IMG/VR virus record: IMGVR_UViG_3300034130_000002
Location: 1 to 28,948 of that record
Origin: a virus
Lineage: Duplodnaviria > Caudoviricetes
Direction: 5' to 3' (one strand)
Length of the DNA: 28,948 bases
Shown here: positions 4,519 to 28,692 of the stretch, piece by piece
How positions within the stretch are numbered: the first letter of the stretch is position 1
Layout: every line of letters begins with the position of its first letter
Program-made: the position numbers and the translations under genes
The notes under the pieces: model-generated
What the model was told of the DNA's origin: nothing
What the model saw: the letters and a program-made list of their open reading frames with translations, nothing else
Database searches by the model: none

Positions 4519-5927
4519 TGTTGCGCAGAGTGGCAAAGGATTGCGTGTTTCACACCTATCAGAAGAAGGCGATCAAATTCCTTCTCTCCCACGGTGCCGC
4601 CGGTCTGTGGTTGGACCCCGGATTAGGTAAGAGCGTTGTAACTCTCTACGCCTTCGCGCAACTCCAGAAGGCTCGCACGGCGCGGCGCATGTTGGTGATT
4701 GCGCCGCTTCGTGTGTGCTGGGCTGTGTGGCCTGACGAAGCGAAGAAGTGGACGCAGACCAAGCACCTGAAAGTGGTTGTGCTCCACGGGCCCAAGAAGG
4801 AACAGTTGCTCAACGAAGACGCCGATGTTTTTTGCATCAACTACGAAGGGCTTCCGTGGCTTCTCCAGAAGGGGCGGCTCGCCAAACTCGATTGCGATCT
4901 TCTCTCCATGGACGAGATCCACAAGCTCAAGCACAGCGATACCACGCGCTTCAAGATGCTGAAGCCTTTTCTTGGGCGCTTCACTCGCCGATGGGGGCTC
5001 ACCGGCACTCCGGCACCGAACGGACTCATGGACATCTTCGGGCAGATCTATTGCCTGGATCTTGGCGATGCGCTCGGGCCGTTTATCACCGCATTCCGTA
5101 ACAAGTATTTCGACGCGACCGGCTTCGGTGACTACGAGTGGGTGCTGAAGCCAGATGAAAAGGGAGATACGAAGAAGACCGAGGAGAAGATCTACAAAAA
5201 AATCCGCCCGCTCATTCTGCGCATTGGCAACGACGTGCTCGGTGACGCCCTTCCTAAGCTGGTGTTCAACGACATCAAGATCGACATGCCCAAGGAAGCC
5301 ATGCGCGTCTATATGGAGATGGAGCACAAGCTGATCACCATGTTGAAGGACGGCACCAAGATCAACGCCGTGAATACCGCCGTGGCCGCAGGAAAGTGCC
5401 TCCAAATTTGTAGCGGCAGTGTCTATCACCAGAATGACGAGACATGGAAACGTGAATCCAAGCTTGTGCACAAGGCAAAGCTTGAAGCCCTTGTGGATCT
5501 TGTGGAGGAAATCGGCGGAAAACCGACGCTCCTCCTGTATTCGTACGACCACGACCGCGCGCTGATCCGCAAGGCGTTCCCCAAAGCTCCACAAGTAGCC
5601 GACTACTCCGGCAAGAAGTCACGGGAGCTTTTCGACAAGTGGAACCGTGGCGAAATCCCGCTCATGGTTGCCCAGCCGCAGAGCATCGGGCACGGACTGA
5701 ACCTCCAGGGTGGCGGTCAGCACATTATCTGGTTCGGCGTGCCGTGGGATCTTACCATCTGGCTCCAGGCCATCGATCGGCTCCGGCGTCAAGGCAGCCC
5801 GTTCGACCACATTTTCGTGCATTGCCTGTTGATGTACCGAACCATCGATATGAAAGTGCGCGGCGTGTTGAAAGGCAAGGATAGGACCCAAGGGGCGCTA
5901 TTGCGGGCCATGCTTGCGCCCTATTGA
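4518..5927 (+). CDS. SNF2-like superfamily 2 helicase
   Basis: Q motif HTYQ, Walker A LDPGLGKS, DEIH, LTGTPAPN, GHGLNLQ, QAIDRLRRQG. ATG at 4518 with GGAGG, overlapping the HNH stop. Confidence 0.93.
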   Translation: MLRRVAKDCVFHTYQKKAIKFLLSHGAAGLWLDPGLGKSVVTLYAFAQLQKARTARRMLVIAPLRVCWAVWPDEAKKWTQTKHLKVVVLHGPKKEQLLNEDADVFCINYEGLPWLLQKGRLAKLDCDLLSMDEIHKLKHSDTTRFKMLKPFLGRFTRRWGLTGTPAPNGLMDIFGQIYCLDLGDALGPFITAFRNKYFDATGFGDYEWVLKPDEKGDTKKTEEKIYKKIRPLILRIGNDVLGDALPKLVFNDIKIDMPKEAMRVYMEMEHKLITMLKDGTKINAVNTAVAAGKCLQICSGSVYHQNDETWKRESKLVHKAKLEALVDLVEEIGGKPTLLLYSYDHDRALIRKAFPKAPQVADYSGKKSRELFDKWNRGEIPLMVAQPQSIGHGLNLQGGGQHIIWFGVPWDLTIWLQAIDRLRRQGSPFDHIFVHCLLMYRTIDMKVRGVLKGKDRTQGALLRAMLAPY

Positions 5928-5980
5928 TTTAAAAATCTAAGAATCTACGTAAGTTGAACGTTATCAACGAAAGAAAATTA

Positions 5981-7703: not shown

Positions 7704-8123
7704 ATGTCTCAGAACGATGAAGAGCGCGCCGCGCGCATCAACGAACTTCGCAGCAAGAACACCGATCTCAACCGTGCCGCCATCGCTCACAATGCCGAGC
7801 CGCTCGGCGAGAAGATCGACAACCTGATCCACGTGCTCCAGGAAAACAAGGGCCATATCGGCGCGATCGGGATTGTCGTGCTCCCCACGGAGGGAGACTC
7901 CCTTGTGGACATGGATGCAGGTAGGGCGTGTGATGGTATCGCGTGCATCATGGCAGAGAACGAGCCCGGGTATGTCGTGTTGGAGCACCACTGGAAGAGC
8001 GCAGTCAAGCAGCAGCACGACCGCGCTACTCAGCGCAGCAGCGGCGTGCCGGCCAGTCTCGCGGCGCTTTTAGGTGGGCTCAGCATGGGGCGCGAAGAGC
8101 CCAGTGACGGCGACGACGAGTAG
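7704..8123 (+). CDS. Hypothetical protein
   Basis: RBS AGAGGAG, ATG start, operon fit. Confidence 0.75.
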   Translation: MSQNDEERAARINELRSKNTDLNRAAIAHNAEPLGEKIDNLIHVLQENKGHIGAIGIVVLPTEGDSLVDMDAGRACDGIACIMAENEPGYVVLEHHWKSAVKQQHDRATQRSSGVPASLAALLGGLSMGREEPSDGDDE

Positions 8124-8920: not shown

Positions 8921-9294
8921 TGGCTTACGCGGCGATTCACCCCTTCTCACCAGTCACCAATGAGATGCGCAAGCTATTTGTGCGGCTTGTGCTGAAAACG
9001 GAGCCTGAGAGCACGCGCATCTGGACGATCTCCGGCACGGAACAGGCCAGGATTCGCAGAGATGGCAAGTTCTACCGCGAAGGGCGCTATGTGCTGAAAG
9101 CGGTAGCGAAGAAGTGGGCGCACGGCTTCCTAGCGGCGGGCATGTCATCGGCGAAAGATTCAGCACCGGAAGAGCGGTTTTATGTGAAAACGCCCGAGAT
9201 GATAGCACTCTCCACGAACCGCGCCACGCTTGCGGAGCTTTTCCCGGATGCGGAGGTCATGACCTGGCATTACGATAGTGGGGTGCCGGAATGA
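8920..9294 (+). CDS. Hypothetical protein
   Basis: TGATG overlap with the upstream stop; GGAGG upstream. Confidence 0.65.
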   Translation: MAYAAIHPFSPVTNEMRKLFVRLVLKTEPESTRIWTISGTEQARIRRDGKFYREGRYVLKAVAKKWAHGFLAAGMSSAKDSAPEERFYVKTPEMIALSTNRATLAELFPDAEVMTWHYDSGVPE

Positions 9295-9716
9295 CCGTGT
9301 TGATCGACTCTAACATGCGGTTTTACTTCATGGTATCCAACCGAAACGGCGTCATGCGTGTGATCGAGCGCGGATCGGCCGGCGGGGAGTACGTGCATAG
9401 CGTAGGGGACAAAAAATCCGCCACGTGTCTTATCCGGCGCAAGGCGGGCGAGGATGAGCTAATAGGCATCCGGCACCTCCATAGCGAAGATGCGGAAAAG
9501 CTCTTTTCCATAGCGGAGAACGTGAGCGGCGGGGATCTTTTGAAGTGTTGGACACGTGACCACGTGTGGAGAGTATCGGCGGAAGCGCAAGAGGTGATCA
9601 ACCGCGTGGTATGGATCGAAGACACGGTTGAGTATCTACGGGACCGCGCCGCGCAACGTCAAGCGCAAGCGCCAAAGTGGATCGAGCTTGCCAAGAGAAG
9701 GCGGGCGAAAAAATAA
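9291..9716 (+). CDS. Hypothetical protein, last gene of the + arm
   Basis: ATGA overlap; stop TAA at 9714-9716. Confidence 0.65.
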   Translation: MTVLIDSNMRFYFMVSNRNGVMRVIERGSAGGEYVHSVGDKKSATCLIRRKAGEDELIGIRHLHSEDAEKLFSIAENVSGGDLLKCWTRDHVWRVSAEAQEVINRVVWIEDTVEYLRDRAAQRQAQAPKWIELAKRRRAKK

Positions 9717-9735
9717 TTCTAGTGATCCGGTACGG

Positions 9736-9752
9736 GGGCCCCTTCGGGGCCC
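9736..9752 (+). terminator. GC-rich hairpin after the + arm (possible terminator or processing site)
   Basis: GGGCCCC-TTC-GGGGCCC; lacks a strong U tract. Confidence 0.4.
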
Positions 9753-9885
9753 TTGCCATGTACGTACCCATGGGGCGCGCGCCGGGAGTGCTACCCGGCC
9801 CATTCCATGTACCCATGGGAGCTAGGCCGGAGTTGAGATTTCGTCTCAATGGCCGGCGCTTCGGGCACCCTAGCGCTAGGTCAAT

Positions 9886-10115
9886 TTGCCCGATTGCCGG
9901 GGCGCTAGGGCATCGCCACGGCGTCAAAAGCCTAGCTTGGTAGATCCATAGCGGCGTAGTGACCTAGCGCCTTAGACGTTGAGAATGTGTCTCAATTAGC
10001 GCATGTTGCGACACGTTCTCATTATCTACGCTACTAGCTTGGTAGGGTGCTAGGGATCTACCAAGCTAGGACTATCGCGCCTTGGAGTACCCTTGGAGCC
10101 CCGGCAATCGGGCAA
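9886..10115. repeat. 230-bp gapless degenerate palindrome centred at 10000/10001
   Basis: Arm pairs 9886-9903/10098-10115 (18/18), 9931-9947/10054-10070 (17/17) and 9980-9995/10006-10021 (14/16) all share centre 10000.5. Confidence 0.93.
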
Positions 10116-10149
10116 TAAAAAGCCCGGCCCCGAGTGACCGGGGCCGGGC
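10116..10149 (-). terminator. Rho-independent terminator of the minus-strand block
   Basis: 11-bp stem GCCCGGCCCCG/CGGGGCCGGGC, 6-nt loop, then TTTTTA on the minus strand, 17 nt after the stop at 10167. Confidence 0.85.
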
Positions 10150-10166: not shown

Positions 10167-10385
10167 TTAGGCGCGATAGTAGACGTTCAGACCCATGATC
10201 AAGGGCTCACCTTCGAGTTCGGCCCCGGTATCGATGTTCCCATGGGTGGACACGACGACCATGGTTTTTCCGCTCGCCGATGCGCGGGGCGTTTCGAGCG
10301 GGGCATTGATGATCAGACGGCCATTCTCCACGACGACGGAGAGGGGGGCGGACTTGGTTGCGGGCTTGGCGGGCTTGGTGGACAT
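10167..10385 (-). CDS. Small conserved hypothetical protein
   Basis: SASGKTMVVVSTHGN...GLNVY resembles a widespread uncharacterised small-protein family; RBS GAGGT. Confidence 0.8.
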   Translation of the reverse strand: MSTKPAKPATKSAPLSVVVENGRLIINAPLETPRASASGKTMVVVSTHGNIDTGAELEGEPLIMGLNVYYRA

Positions 10386-10461: not shown

Positions 10462-11280
10462 CTAGCGGCGAGCGCGGCGAGGTGCGGGTGCCGGGGCGGG
10501 CTTGGACTTGCGGCGAGGTGCCGGTTCGTCGTCGTCGTCGTCGTCGTCGCCTTCGTCCTCCACGGGGGCGGGCTTGGACTTGCGAGCGGGCTTGGCGGGC
10601 GCTTCTTCCTTCGGGTTGAGCGTGAAGCCAAGCTCACGGAGGAGCGCGGTAAAGCTCCGAAGCGTGGTCATTTCGGCGCATTCTTCGTACCGGGCCGGGA
10701 TAGACTCCCAAAGGATGGAAATATCCACGATCTCGTCCGCATCTTCGGCAATCTTGGCATCGATGTACCGGTAAAGCTTTGCCTTAGTGGCGCGATCCAT
10801 GACGGGCTTGGTAGCGGGGGCCGGGGCGAGCTTGCGCGCCTTGGCCTTGTCTTCGGCCTTCCGGGCGATGATGTCCGCTTGAACCTCGGCGAGTCTCCGG
10901 GCTTCCTTGGCGCTCGGCGCGGAAGCCGGAGTGGTGGGGCCATCGCGGAGTAATTCGGCGGCCTTGGCGGCCTTGGCGCGCGCCTTCGCCTTGCCGAGCG
11001 CGATTTCCGCGACCTTCACGGCTTCGCGGGCGGCGCCCGAGCGCGGGTGTTTCGTGGATTCGGCGGAGGCGGCATTGAACGCGACCACGGCGGCGGCTAG
11101 TCCGGACCCGGCCTTGATGGCGCGGAGATGTTCCGGGGACTCCACGGGTGCGGGGGCGGGCTTGGAGCGCTTGACCGGAGCCACGGGGGCCGGAGCGGGC
11201 TTGGAGCGCTTGACCGGAGCCACGGGAGCGGGAGCGGGGGCGGGGGCGGAGGACTTGCGGGGGGTTTGGACGGTTTTCAT
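10462..11280 (-). CDS. Ala/Pro/Lys-rich low-complexity protein with an acidic tract
   Basis: RBS AAAGGA; four SKPAP repeats; EDEGDDDDDDDE near the C-terminus. Confidence 0.75.
   Translation of the reverse strand: MKTVQTPRKSSAPAPAPAPVAPVKRSKPAPAPVAPVKRSKPAPAPVESPEHLRAIKAGSGLAAAVVAFNAASAESTKHPRSGAAREAVKVAEIALGKAKARAKAAKAAELLRDGPTTPASAPSAKEARRLAEVQADIIARKAEDKAKARKLAPAPATKPVMDRATKAKLYRYIDAKIAEDADEIVDISILWESIPARYEECAEMTTLRSFTALLRELGFTLNPKEEAPAKPARKSKPAPVEDEGDDDDDDDEPAPRRKSKPAPAPAPRRARR
11156..11226. repeat. Intragenic tandem repeat, 39-bp period (PVAPVKRSKPAPA x2)
   Basis: GCGGGCTTGGAGCGCTTGACCGGAGCCACGGG at 11156-11187 and 11195-11226. Confidence 0.9.
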
Positions 11281-11714: not shown

Positions 11715-12065
11715 CTAGTGCGAAGTGTAGGCGGGACGGGTGCCGGTGAGATTGAAAAGCACCGAGCAAACGGTATCGATGGACGAAAGCACGGAGCCAT
11801 AGAGCGGGGAGTCTATACCGGGCCGCTCCTCCTCAAGCTCCGGACGGGAGAGGATGGACCGGGCCGCGCGGGAGGCTTCCCATGCCATGATGGCGTCGTC
11901 TTCGGCGGCGGTACCGGCCGCGTGAAGCGCGAGAACGCGAAGCGCTTCGGCAAGATCCACGGCGATTGCGCGGGCCGGGACGGGGCCACGGAGTAGCGCG
12001 GAATCAAGGTCAAAGGCGAGTGAAAGCGCTTTGGTTGCGGGGGGTGTGATTGACGACCTTATCAT
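11715..12065 (-). CDS. Hypothetical protein
   Basis: ATG at 12065 preceded by AAGGAGA. Confidence 0.65.
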   Translation of the reverse strand: MIRSSITPPATKALSLAFDLDSALLRGPVPARAIAVDLAEALRVLALHAAGTAAEDDAIMAWEASRAARSILSRPELEEERPGIDSPLYGSVLSSIDTVCSVLFNLTGTRPAYTSH

Positions 12066-12099: not shown

Positions 12100-12215
12100 A
12101 ATGAAAACATACTTATATTACTAAGTCAACAACTTTCTACAAATATTTATAGTAACTTAGCTAGTTATATAGTGTAATAGCTTTGTAGTTTATTAGAATA
12201 GTAGCCGTTTATAGA
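12100..12215. promoter_or_regulatory. AT-rich control region (promoter(s) for the minus block and/or unwinding element)
   Basis: Sharp AT island in GC-rich surroundings; TTGACT on the minus strand at 12129-12124; shares motifs with the 5981-6009 promoter. The exact -10 is not resolved. Confidence 0.55.
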
Positions 12216-12237: not shown

Positions 12238-12318
12238 TGGGAGGTAGACATGGGGTGGGAGGTAGACATGGGGTGGGAGGTAGACATGGGGTGGGAGGTA
12301 GACATGAGGTGGGAGGTA
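12238..12318 (+). repeat. 18-bp tandem repeat TGGGAGGTAGACATGGGG x4.5
   Basis: Units start at 12238, 12256, 12274, 12292 (one G>A) and 12310 (partial). Confidence 0.95.
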
Positions 12319-12324
12319 CAAGCA

Positions 12325-12354
12325 CCGGCCCCGCGCATGGTGCCACGGGGCCGG
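12325..12354 (-). terminator. GC-rich hairpin downstream of the late operon
   Basis: CCGGCCCCG...CGGGGCCGG 9-bp stem, 19 nt beyond the stop at 12374; weak U tract. Confidence 0.45.
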
Positions 12355-25897: not shown

Positions 25898-26125
25898 TTA
25901 ATCCGCCTTCACCATCAAGTTCTGGTTGTAGTTGTTCACCGAAATTACTTCGTAGAGATTGTACATATCTTCGGTGCCGTAGACGGTCTGTAGTTCGTGG
26001 AGCGTGGCGTACTTGCTGCTGATTACCACGCCGGAGATAGCGCTGACATTCTCGTAATCTACGAACTTGTACTTGGGGCTGCTCTGGAAACCCAAGTCCG
26101 GATTTTTTCGGCCAGAGAAAAACCC
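25898..26125 (-). CDS. Tail assembly chaperone extension (gpGT-like, expressed via -1 frameshift)
   Basis: ATLHELQTVYGTEDMYNLYEVI; no good independent start; the -1 frame is open from the slippery site G GGT TTT at 26125-26119. Confidence 0.75.
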   Translation of the reverse strand, partial: GFFSGRKNPDLGFQSSPKYKFVDYENVSAISGVVISSKYATLHELQTVYGTEDMYNLYEVISVNNYNQNLMVKAD

Positions 26126-26496
26126 ATGTGCAATTTCAGCACCTCCTTGCGCAGAAAAATGACCGTGTCGATTTCCTCAAGGTCGAAGTCGTTCAAGGAG
26201 CGAGTCAGCAACGGCTCCTTGATCTGGACGCACTTCATCATCTCGTCCAATAGCGGCTCCACAGCATCCCAGTTTGCGCCGGAAAGCATTCCCACGCCCA
26301 TCGCGGCGAGGGTAGCCATGCTCGCGCCGGCCGCACTCTGGGGCATGGCGATCTTGCCGTTGCCGACGATGGCGAGAACGGCGCGGTACGCCCACTTCTC
26401 AGCGGGAATAGCAGCCATCTCGGTGATGTGAAAAACCTTGCCCTTGTCGCGTCCTTCAGTGTTGATGATGATGTCGATCTCTTTTCGGCTCCCCAT
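26059..26496 (-). CDS. Tail assembly chaperone (gpG-like)
   Basis: GRDKGKVFHITEM.A..AEKWA.R...PLLDEMMKCVQ...LRKEVLKLH; lies between the tube and tape measure genes. Confidence 0.82.
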   Translation of the reverse strand: MGSRKEIDIIINTEGRDKGKVFHITEMAAIPAEKWAYRAVLAIVGNGKIAMPQSAAGASMATLAAMGVGMLSGANWDAVEPLLDEMMKCVQIKEPLLTRSLNDFDLEEIDTVIFLRKEVLKLHMGFSLAEKIRTWVSRAAPSTSS

Positions 26497-26498
26497 GG

Positions 26499-26930
26499 CT
26501 ACATGTTCGCTTTCTGGACGCTCTCGAAGCTGATCTCGAATTCCTGCGCTTCGAGCATCTTCTTGGCGTCCGGAATGGGCTTGTAGTTGACGAGCCCGCC
26601 GTTGGTGCAGTTGTACTTGGCCCCGTTGCCCGGCATGGTGATCACCATGCCTCCGGCGATGGCGTCCTGATTCTGCACCTGGGCGTAGTACCACTGATCG
26701 AAGTAGGCGATGGAATAGGAGTCCGCCGCGAACTTGAACTTGATCTTGACCGGGTGCGGAAGCCAGCCGAGACTCTGGTGGCCGTCCACGCCCATGACGA
26801 CTTCGGTAGCGGCAACGGAGTCGGAGGTGAACATATCGTCAGCGGCCCACTGTCCGAGTGCCACACCGGAAGAAAGCACGCCGGGCACCGTGAGAATGAT
26901 GGTCGCATTTGCGGAAGTGATCGTGCCCAT
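26499..26930 (-). CDS. Tail tube protein
   Basis: TITSANA...WAADDMF...MGVDG...P.AKKMLE; follows the sheath gene. Confidence 0.82.
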   Translation of the reverse strand: MGTITSANATIILTVPGVLSSGVALGQWAADDMFTSDSVAATEVVMGVDGHQSLGWLPHPVKIKFKFAADSYSIAYFDQWYYAQVQNQDAIAGGMVITMPGNGAKYNCTNGGLVNYKPIPDAKKMLEAQEFEISFESVQKANM

Positions 26931-26940
26931 GGAGCGCTCC

Positions 26941-28692
26941 TTATTGGATGTTGACCGACGCGATGGTCATCTGATTGACGGACCCGCCATCCATGTACCA
27001 CAGCGTGGTTACTGGGGAGGTGCGGTTGGCGCGCATGGTGGGCGTGGCGTTCTGAACCTGGAAGTACCAGCCACGCTGGTTGAGCGTGGGGTCGATGACG
27101 ATCCCGGCAGCGGCATCCACGGCGGAGATCTGCGCTGAAGAAAGCGTAACGCCGGGATTGATCACGCCGTTCTTGAGCGCCATCTGCACGGGCGACCCGA
27201 CGCCGGTAGTGACCGCGCTATCGATCATCGCGTAGCCAGCTTGGTTGTACGGGATGTACTGCTGGAGGAGCATGTTGTTCACTTCGGCGAGCTGAATGGC
27301 GGCATTGAGCCAGATAGCGCCCACGTACGAATCAAGCCACCCATAGGAGCCGCTGATCCAGCCATTGGTGAAAACGTTGAACGCGTAGTTGGCGGTAGCG
27401 AACGCTCCGTAGAAGTTGGTGAAATTAGCGATGGCGTTGGCGTAGGATGTGGGGTCGGAGATCGTGGCCGCGATGCCCGTGCCTTGCTTGGCCTGGATTG
27501 CCGCGCGCCCATTCTTGGCATTCCAGTTAATGCTTGCGATGAACCCGAGTGCGAAAGCCGCCGCATCAGGACCGCCGTTTGCATTGGCGTATACCGGGAA
27601 GCATCCTGCATAGCTGTTCGTGCGTACCCAGTAGGAAATGCACGTAGTGGACGCATTGCTGGAGGTGATCGTGGCGTCGGAATCGTAAGGCGCGTAGACG
27701 AACTGTCCGCCAGTGGAGGAGGTCCACGAAGCAAACGCCATCTTGTCGGCGATGATCGGCTCGAAGGCCGTAGTGAACCCGGCCCAGTTCTGGGTATAAA
27801 GATCCAGCGCAGCCATTGCGACGGCCGGAGTCATCGCGGCGGCGGTGCCGAGCGAGATGGTGCCGCCCGCTCCAAGCCCCATCGCAGCAACGGCGGCAGA
27901 GGTTCCGCCACAGATCGTGACCGCACCGGCGCCGGTAGTTCCGGAAGTGATGGTGAACGCGTTGAAAAGCGAGTTGTAGGTGCAGGTAGTTCCGGCAGGA
28001 GCGCCGCCAGTGATCAACTGCGCGGCGAGCACGACGCCGGCATTCGAGATGGAGGTCGCGGTGGAGAGGTTGACGGTAGTGACGGACACGGCCGCACCAT
28101 TGAGCGTCATGGTCAGCGTGCCAGTGGTAATAGCCTGTAGCGCGGCCAGGGTAGTAGTAGCCGGAAGCGACACTCCGCGCATAAACCCGCCGAGAGCCAC
28201 CTGGGAGTATCGCGAGAACCAGAGCGCCGTGGGCTTGAGCGTGCCGAGCGTGTAACCGTTGAAGTAGATCTGCGCCATGTTGTATTCCAGCGAGTTGCTG
28301 GTGACACTCTGCGCAGTGGCCTGGGTCCACGTGGTGTTGATGGTGACGGTGCCCACGCCGGTTCCGGACGTGTAGGTGCCTAGCGCAGTGATGTACGTTC
28401 CGGGGGGGCACCCAGTAGCGAGCAAGCCCTGAATGGCCTGGCCCACTGCGAGCGTGCCGCTGGTGGTGGACACGATGGTTAGCGTGCTGCCCGTGCACGT
28501 AGCGGTCCCGGACCACGCGTAGCTTCCGAAGTAGGCGAGCACCTGCGCGGCGCTCGCAAAGCTGATCGGCGCGCCGACCGGGAGGTTGGGGGAGTTGGTC
28601 AAAATCATTCCATTGAGAGCAAGCGGATTCCCGCCCGCGCTCAGTACGCTAGGAACGACGCTGACAATGTTGGAGGCAGGAATCGTGTTCAT
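26941..28692 (-). CDS. Tail sheath protein (DUF3383 type)
   Basis: IPASNIVSVVPSVLSAGG, EYNMAQIYFNGY, QNWAGFTT, WLDSYV..IWLN, IPYNQAGY, RANRTSP...WYMDGGSV. Confidence 0.9.
   Translation of the reverse strand: MNTIPASNIVSVVPSVLSAGGNPLALNGMILTNSPNLPVGAPISFASAAQVLAYFGSYAWSGTATCTGSTLTIVSTTSGTLAVGQAIQGLLATGCPPGTYITALGTYTSGTGVGTVTINTTWTQATAQSVTSNSLEYNMAQIYFNGYTLGTLKPTALWFSRYSQVALGGFMRGVSLPATTTLAALQAITTGTLTMTLNGAAVSVTTVNLSTATSISNAGVVLAAQLITGGAPAGTTCTYNSLFNAFTITSGTTGAGAVTICGGTSAAVAAMGLGAGGTISLGTAAAMTPAVAMAALDLYTQNWAGFTTAFEPIIADKMAFASWTSSTGGQFVYAPYDSDATITSSNASTTCISYWVRTNSYAGCFPVYANANGGPDAAAFALGFIASINWNAKNGRAAIQAKQGTGIAATISDPTSYANAIANFTNFYGAFATANYAFNVFTNGWISGSYGWLDSYVGAIWLNAAIQLAEVNNMLLQQYIPYNQAGYAMIDSAVTTGVGSPVQMALKNGVINPGVTLSSAQISAVDAAAGIVIDPTLNQRGWYFQVQNATPTMRANRTSPVTTLWYMDGGSVNQMTIASVNIQ

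Follow-up and report, generated by a model that had tools for sequence, protein, structure and literature searches.

A 230-bp imperfect palindrome with 8-bp TAG units at the convergence point of transcription in a phage genome

Why would a phage carry a long non-coding palindrome exactly where its two transcription blocks converge? The cis sites of lytic phages beyond promoters, terminators and packaging sites are poorly known, and the preliminary description of this locus offered four options: a cos/pac-type site or junction of genome ends, a recombination or telomere-resolution site, a cruciform origin, and a rod-like noncoding RNA. We refer to the whole stretch of DNA analyzed as the window; it is a virus record of 28,948 nt, 56% complete according to CheckV. 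That the palindrome is a conserved non-coding cis feature at the point of convergence is upheld by the analysis below, and the question becomes what it is for.

The palindrome and its surroundings

Plus-strand genes reach position 9716 and encode DNA polymerase A, an exonuclease, two methylases, an HNH endonuclease, an SNF2 helicase and small unknown proteins, the last of this replication block being a 141-aa gene (9291..9716, +). Minus-strand genes specify a contractile tail whose baseplate is of the E217 type, and four small genes of this strand lie nearest to the palindrome; among the tail genes, the ORF of a tail assembly chaperone (26059-26694, −) overlaps the frame of the upstream tube gene. 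The head genes are located more than 19 kb from the palindrome, past the end of the window. Identity of the tail sheath to named phages does not exceed 40%, and the primase and polymerase of a close relative (G001) are 35-39% identical to those of Stenotrophomonas phage AXL3, Pseudoxanthomonas phage PW916 and MW202621. The window phage is thus an unclassified myovirus that is apparently lytic. Compared with the window, G001 carries insertions or replacements of 519 and 658 nt at 5399-5421 and 5749-5929, inside and at the end of the helicase gene, which are possibly an intein or intron plus an HNH gene.

The palindrome spans 9886..10115, with its center at 10000/10001. Among the 115 in-register pairs, 82 are Watson-Crick, 10 are G-T, 3 are A-C and 20 are other mismatches, and this recount agrees exactly with the earlier count by hand. 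When pairing was scored over all centers of the window at equal arm length, the next best center reached 51 and the mean was 29.3 (sd 5.0). The symmetry ends at 9886/10115, and only 25 of the next 85 outward pairs match. The three arm pairs reported about a single center were likewise recovered, at 18/18 (9886-9903/10098-10115), 17/17 (9931-9947/10054-10070) and 14/16 (9980-9995/10006-10021).

From the outside inward, each arm consists of an 18-bp perfect end, a 27-bp weak zone, six 8-bp units and a TGAGA-N5-TCTCA box, after which comes the core. The outer inverted repeats (9886..9903, + and 10098..10115, −) retain 16 perfect base pairs in the relative. In the weakly paired zone of the left arm (9904..9930, +), 14 of 27 pairs are Watson-Crick and 26 of 27 nucleotides are identical in the relative; opposite to it, the right arm has 11-bp units with CCTTGGAG (10071..10097, +; units at 10080 and 10091), of which the relative has three copies. 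The central 10-bp spacer noted previously is the asymmetric core TTAGCGCATG (9996..10005), which has two of five pairs Watson-Crick and is identical in the relative. To the left, a conserved extension (9834..9885, 49/52 identical in the relative) contains a third TGAGA-N5-TCTCA box (9834-9848), small hairpins and the 12-bp palindrome CCTAGCGCTAGG (9869-9880). Farther out is a strain-variable segment (9729..9833), replaced by 52 unrelated nucleotides in the relative; it includes the hairpin near 9736 described before, which is present in the fold. To the right, a conserved intrinsic terminator-like hairpin with a T run (10116..10149, −) ends the minus-strand operon, and the flanking terminator proposed earlier was indeed called there, at 10122-10149.

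An assembly artifact can be excluded, as a 6,280-nt contig from the probable source metagenome run spans the element with 0 differences and a diverged copy occurs in other contigs, namely two IMG/VR contigs and contigs of runs X2, X3, X5 and X6. The six metagenome runs examined for the site are peat metagenomes, represented by contigs only; run X7 holds a third variant. The relative is ~89% identical to the window at the element, and its arms are 115 and 127 nt long. The gapless register reported for the palindrome therefore holds in the window and fails in the relative, hence it is specific to the strain.

A more distant phage, G002, is a CheckV-complete siphovirus of 63 kb in which the genes flanking the element occur in identical order. 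It shares the replication block and the small operon with the window, whereas the tails differ (lambda-like siphovirus vs. E217-type contractile), which is a swap of the morphogenesis module. The terminase of G002 carries an intein.

TAG units, boxes and their divergence between strains

The internal anatomy given in the preliminary description lacked three elements, the 8-bp TAG units, the three 5-5-5 boxes and a further TAG array outside the palindrome. The left array (9931..9978, +) has six 8-bp units with TAG at 9933, 9941, 9949, 9957, 9965 and 9973, and the right array (10023..10070, −) has six units with TAG in five and TAC in one. The third array (12160..12207, +; TAG at 12162-12202), also of six units, is located 2.1 kb from the palindrome in an AT-rich region upstream of the minus-strand small-gene operon, the same operon whose end terminator adjoins the palindrome. 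Across the 18 octamers of the window, phases 3-5 are T in 18/18, A in 18/18 and G in 17/18, whereas the most frequent letter at each of the other five phases occurs at most 9 times in 18. As the octamers were framed on the TAG runs themselves, what is informative is how widely the remaining five positions vary: plain decay of a minisatellite would erode every position to a similar extent. In units 3-6, pairing extends to only 7 of the 20 positions outside TAG, and the symmetry of these units is for the most part one of TAG phase.

The three TAG arrays are the only runs of any 3-mer in the window at ≥5/7 slots (eight periods tested), and such a run was produced by 0/200 block shuffles and by 0/1000 dinucleotide shuffles of each non-coding stretch. 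Period-8 arrays are nonetheless common in viral contigs, and a GAT control was no rarer (~230 vs. ~150 stretches), thus raw counts do not set TAG arrays apart among viruses. Among the 119 TAG loci of the viral scan, 19 have diverged spacers and 12 have a following CTA run, mostly in simple CTAG tandem repeats.

Tandem repeats of other kinds were also seen beside the promoter array. In the window, five 18-bp tandem units with TGGGAGG lie just to its right (12238-12327), the G001 contig begins inside this repeat, and a 13-bp tandem occupies the corresponding place in G002. All three phages thus have repeats flanking the small operon at either end.

The box left of the core (9980..9994) differs from the relative only in N5, and the inverted box right of the core (10007..10021), which has one mismatch, is identical in the relative; across the boxes, all changes are confined to N5. 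Three TGAGA-N5-TCTCA boxes were found in the window against 0.59 expected, all within 9834-10021. One may ask whether the paired boxes bind a Fur-family metal regulator of the host, as a sensor or decoy. A paired-box pattern designed from the element found six GTDB loci, all just upstream of a gene, two of which precede feoAB (one Pfam-annotated, the other its close homolog), and published Fur boxes contain TGAGAAT (PMC3055841). Of the other four loci, however, two lie before a DUF6662 protein, one before an outer-membrane-like protein and one before a sigma factor. The boxes show a likeness to Fur half-sites, but against the 19-bp Fur consensus the centered boxes score 6-7/19 and 12/19 at the best offset; 10 window sites score ≥12/19, so the boxes are not above background. 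We regard Fur binding as very improbable.

Conservation relative to G001 is uneven along the locus. The segment 9834-9929 is identical at 92/96 positions and the promoter array at 48/48, compared with 179/220 four-fold sites of three genes (binomial p ~3e-5 and ~5e-5, respectively), although mosaic exchange could inflate local identity to the relative. The arm arrays are identical at 41/48 and 36/48 (p = 0.31 and 0.90), which is not above neutral, the divergence of the right arm is at or above the neutral rate, and the relative lacks TAG in 2 of the 12 arm units. The neutral identity of the arm arrays counts against strong selection on every unit. A four-TAG run is also found near 28,460 in the divergent non-coding region of G001.

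If the palindrome acts as RNA, its pairing should survive substitution. The main rival to a DNA site is that transcripts of the plus-strand replication block end, or are processed, at a long periodic hairpin. Folding is strong in both variants (for the window, z −11.9 with the plus strand and −12.6 with the minus strand; −7.2 in the relative), the outer 16-18-bp stem is conserved, and from 9716 to the element terminator calling found none for the plus strand. Convergent paired heptamer arrays are also documented in bacteria, with 70 and 75 cases in two Xanthomonas genomes (PMC4692102), and the hairpin would resemble these paired arrays of short repeats as well as the REP-type palindromes that lie at the ends of bacterial genes. 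The substitutions, however, count against this reading. Of the inner 68 pairs, 20 are changed in the relative: none is compensatory, 11 went from Watson-Crick to mismatch and 1 to G-T, 5 are gains and 3 are other changes. This comparison involves two sequences only, yet in the same pair the adjoining terminator, our control for covariation, preserves its stem by compensation, a C-G pair having become T-A, while the inner 68 pairs of the rod show none. The 12-nt arm asymmetry of the relative also argues against a maintained hairpin, and the palindrome has no Rfam family at threshold, its four weak hits falling far below the gathering score. The excess of G-T over A-C mismatches had been taken as a hint of selection for folding of the plus strand; at 10:3 (p = 0.09), and at 5:5 in the inner 68 pairs of the relative, this bias is not significant. 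A promoter-like site upstream of the element at 9688-9717 (plus strand) was not called in the relative, and the proposal of a rod-like RNA is not borne out by these data. A strong fold would be expected of any mirrored array, that of the relative included, and a rod that is predicted to be very stable (z ~−12) can arise as a side effect of repeats being mirrored and of copying between arms. As the RNA reading also leaves the unpaired TAG array at 12160-12207 unexplained, we consider it somewhat unlikely.

In another account, the palindrome is a nearly neutral repeat hotspot generated by slippage and template switching in an inter-operon spacer. Copying of units is visible in both strains: the window has a 12-bp word in both direct and inverted copies and the relative has 15-bp and 23-bp direct repeats, and we infer that the changes of units between strains come from template switching and slippage. 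The 17/17 patch (units 1-2) is only 11/16 in the relative, and the perfect patches of the palindrome likely arise from arm-to-arm copying. The neutral divergence of the right arm, and the different array at the corresponding place in G002, fit such a hotspot as well. Neutrality is opposed, however, by the conservation of 9834-9929 and of the promoter array, by the retention of TAG while spacers scatter, and by three boxes that vary only in N5. We rate a nearly neutral hotspot as quite improbable. If this or the RNA-end reading were true, the element would be only a phage instance of known periodic palindromes.

Replication, genome ends and more distant phages

Replication could start at the palindrome, as the origin proper or as an additional origin element, if the phage primase-helicase recognizes inverted iterons or a stem-loop extruded there. 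A DUF3854+DUF5906 primase-helicase is present in the relative, its helicase portion matching structures of NrS-1, and six units per arm would fit a hexamer. In phage P4, octamer repeats (ori1/crr) occur at two separate sites. Comparable to the P4 and pRN1 systems, the phage here combines a primase fused to an SF3-type helicase, a long imperfect inverted repeat and octamers at two places. In pRN1, a related helicase needs a 100-nt stem-loop for replication, although pRN1 keeps structure while sequence varies, the opposite of the palindrome (PMC4234260). Unlike in both systems, the site is far from the primase gene, lies head-on to transcription and is missing in kin with a common primase.

The direction of transcription weighs against an origin, since forks leaving the site would meet both gene blocks head-on, and GC skew is positive throughout the site with no switch. 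A 1.5-kb AT-rich divergent region is, by eye, a better candidate. In that region, a pyrimidine run followed by a purine run was noted by eye at G001:C1 28,850-28,950, G002:C1 35,120-35,200 and AXL3 47,430-47,520, and this tract is a candidate replication origin for the phage group. Neither the palindrome nor TAG-8 arrays were found in three phages related through primase (35%) and polymerase, two of them cultured, namely AXL3, PW916 and MW202621 (its first 50 kb), which have no such element at their convergence points, nor does G002 have the palindrome. The site is thus not needed by the replication module in general. The orientation and the skew weigh on the cruciform origin suggested at first, and we give an origin at this site a low probability.

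What occupies the corresponding place in G002 is of a different kind. Both termini of its contig fall within a long direct array of 30-bp (12+18) units that have CATG/CCGG cores (G002:C1 62,750-63,115 and 1-295; L007, L200), which is followed by a hairpin and a homolog of the 72-aa gene discussed below. We infer that the contig ends join, such that the direct array occupies the site homologous to the palindrome. BLAST of the palindrome against G002 gave no match. The words CCCATGGG and GGCCGGAG of the G002 array are present also in the strain-variable part of the window (9767-9832). Upstream of the corresponding operon of G002, TAG at 1869/77/85 is mirrored by CTA at 1915/23/31/39 (25/40 pairs).

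Because the G002 contig starts and stops in this array, and because a 10-bp asymmetric core stands between symmetric arms, the palindrome might be taken for a cos/pac site or a junction of genome ends, with the core as the cohesive end and the arrays as sites for the terminase small subunit. PB1-like phages are reported to have one fixed end ~7.5 kb from the usual first nucleotide (PMC4482731); for Pbunavirus the reports conflict, and a recent study favors headful packaging (PMC4482731, PMC12390725). The AXL3 paper is silent on genome termini. Contigs of the six runs cross the site without a loose end or a strand-change joint, a weak test with contigs rather than virion reads. Furthermore, the head genes are more than 19 kb away, the phage's own terminase gene falls outside the window, and the break of the G002 contig is explained by the repeat. 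The terminase and portal of G002 fall in phrog_38 and phrog_146, which we take to be Mu-type rather than cos-type families. A long terminal repeat over the small operon is unsupported as well, the contig depth there being 9.0, 14.9, 119 and 9.8, against 8.8-9.3, 11-15, 106-110 and 12-16 beside the operon in matching order, again a weak test made on contigs. We rate the earlier suggestion of a packaging site or end junction as improbable.

Nested inverted repeats about one center and a GCGC core might also suggest telomere resolution or site-specific recombination. The arrangement resembles that of N15 telRL/tos, where TelN is needed to cut telRL (PMC2847241). Unlike in N15, no protelomerase was found, and the core is imperfect. 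Specifically, a PF16684 protelomerase was found in 0/5 records (three at least 90% complete, the window's own record 56%) and a PF00589 tyrosine recombinase in 0/3 records (one a CheckV-complete relative), with the controls working in both searches; no serine recombinase appeared in the PHROG and Pfam scans. Two of five core pairs match and the neighbors are unknown small genes, and we rate this option from the preliminary description as extremely improbable.

Searches for homologs of the element found few. BLAST of the region returned two short hits by chance among phage records and four hits among plasmids, all at the terminator end. Scanning viral contigs with a 17-mer gave four loci, of which two are true (one relative) and two are chance matches in coding DNA. 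Scans with two other flanking proteins found only the known relative and one short weak hit, and the literature, within limited coverage, yielded no description of such an element.

A proposed protein-coated site and its analogs

The constant TAG, the scattering spacers, the recurrence of the array at the promoter and the missing compensatory pairing together point to reading on double-stranded DNA. With slightly less than an even chance of being right, and by analogy, we tentatively favor the palindrome as a dsDNA site that a protein would coat cooperatively, likely acting where transcription converges as a loop anchor or as a roadblock in both directions. The 8-bp TAG word would be read on dsDNA at a fixed step, at promoter regions and, mirrored, at the point of convergence, perhaps with one protomer per 8-bp unit. 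Cooperative coating of the mirrored arrays, probably by a phage-encoded protein, would give a symmetric complex, and a second, dimeric protein may sit on the TGAGA-N5-TCTCA boxes. Such a complex could block or anchor polymerases arriving from either side, and possibly also meeting replication forks. Looping between the palindrome and the promoter array would be possible, and a shared regulator may link the promoter arrays to the palindrome. Arm-to-arm copying or slippage would be the putative source of the perfect 17-bp patch and of the gains of units.

Three genes of the small operon are regarded as candidate binders only. The first gene of the operon, directly downstream of the third array, encodes a 116-aa protein of no family (11715..12065, −). 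A 272-aa Lys/Ala/Pro-rich gene (10462..11280, −), histone-like by composition, has a weak counterpart at the corresponding place in G002. The last gene encodes a 72-aa protein (10167..10385, −) of a widespread phage family, predicted to be all-beta: ~1,700 metagenome stretches match its pattern, with the motif S-x-S-G-K-T-x-V-V-x-S-T-x-G-N. The model of the 72-aa protein (pLDDT 89) has no fold match in Foldseek or VIA and none in the PDB, 122 members of its family yielded no Pfam family, and atlas searches with the proteins returned unnamed viral clusters or nothing. An intertwined oligomer is a possible fold for the 72-aa protein.

When the 72-aa alignment was used to scan metagenomes and viruses, mostly relatives of 36-65% identity were found. 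Among 199 loci of this family, only copies of one relative match the element, with a gapless palindrome score of 49 compared with 21 at best for any other locus. In the 195 loci L005-L199, outside the G001 copies, two carry a TAG/CTA period-8 run (L165, L176), which is too few to tie the family to the arrays. In L176, and in no other of the 195 loci, six period-8 CTA units (7764-7810) immediately precede, on the upstream side, a promoter-like site that stands ahead of a further family member.

A bolder version of the protein-coated site, which we consider unlikely, is that the lytic phage encodes, within the small operon that the TAG arrays bracket, its own coating protein of unrecognized fold (e.g., the 72-aa protein) that polymerizes on the TAG arrays of the early promoters and on the mirrored arrays of the palindrome, loops the genome and forms a two-way stop for polymerases or forks. 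If true, a centromere- or Ter-like system of chromosome organization would exist in a virulent phage. The sequence code itself, TAG every 8 bp at three places plus a 5-5-5 box, is precise and testable, and it offers a handle for assigning a DNA-binding role to an unannotated small protein, the 72-aa family included.

How does a coated palindrome compare with known systems? In the Tus/Ter and RTP/Ter fork traps, inverted protein-bound sites lie where replication forks converge, and tandem MetJ and TrpR operators are bound cooperatively at an 8-bp period. Unlike in these systems, no such protein was found in the phage.

Mirrored arrays of short repeats are already known in bacteria (PMC4692102). 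Like the GGGAATC heptamer arrays of Xanthomonas and Nostoc, the palindrome consists of tandem short words mirrored in intergenic DNA, with a unit number that changes. The GGGAATC arrays are dispersed in bacterial chromosomes with near-identical G-rich units (PMC4692102), and many dispersed near-identical copies were not seen in the 29 kb and 31 kb examined here: each sequence has one mirrored copy, and the spacer identity of the TAG units is 0.23. Unlike the heptamer arrays, the phage element also has units that share only TAG, added boxes, terminal arms and an unpaired copy at a promoter.

A close analog is the partition system of TP228, whose OF operator and parH centromere alike carry tetramer boxes, set apart by 4-bp spacers, that become coated by ParG (PMC3130281). 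TP228 and the phage element share a short degenerate word at an 8-bp period, with variable spacers and direct as well as inverted repeats, and both have one type of array at a promoter and at a second site (PMC3130281). They differ in that the phage word is TAG rather than a tetramer box, the arm spacers are GC-rich and two long mirrored arrays flank central boxes. In addition, neither ParA/ParF nor an RHH protein turned up in the phage, which looks lytic, and 2.1 kb separates its sites. Families of the HTH, RHH, ParA and ParR types were absent from the 40 window proteins and 25 listed G001 proteins scanned, and no linked ParA-type ATPase and RHH binder was seen in the scanned window, G001 and G002 proteins, where the window genome is partial and a small RHH protein is easily missed. 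As no partition or HTH/RHH protein was found, we do not class the site as a centromere, although it would work in a ParG-like manner. What is novel is that one phage combines arrays in mirrored form, boxes at their center and, at a promoter, a further copy that is unpaired and highly conserved.
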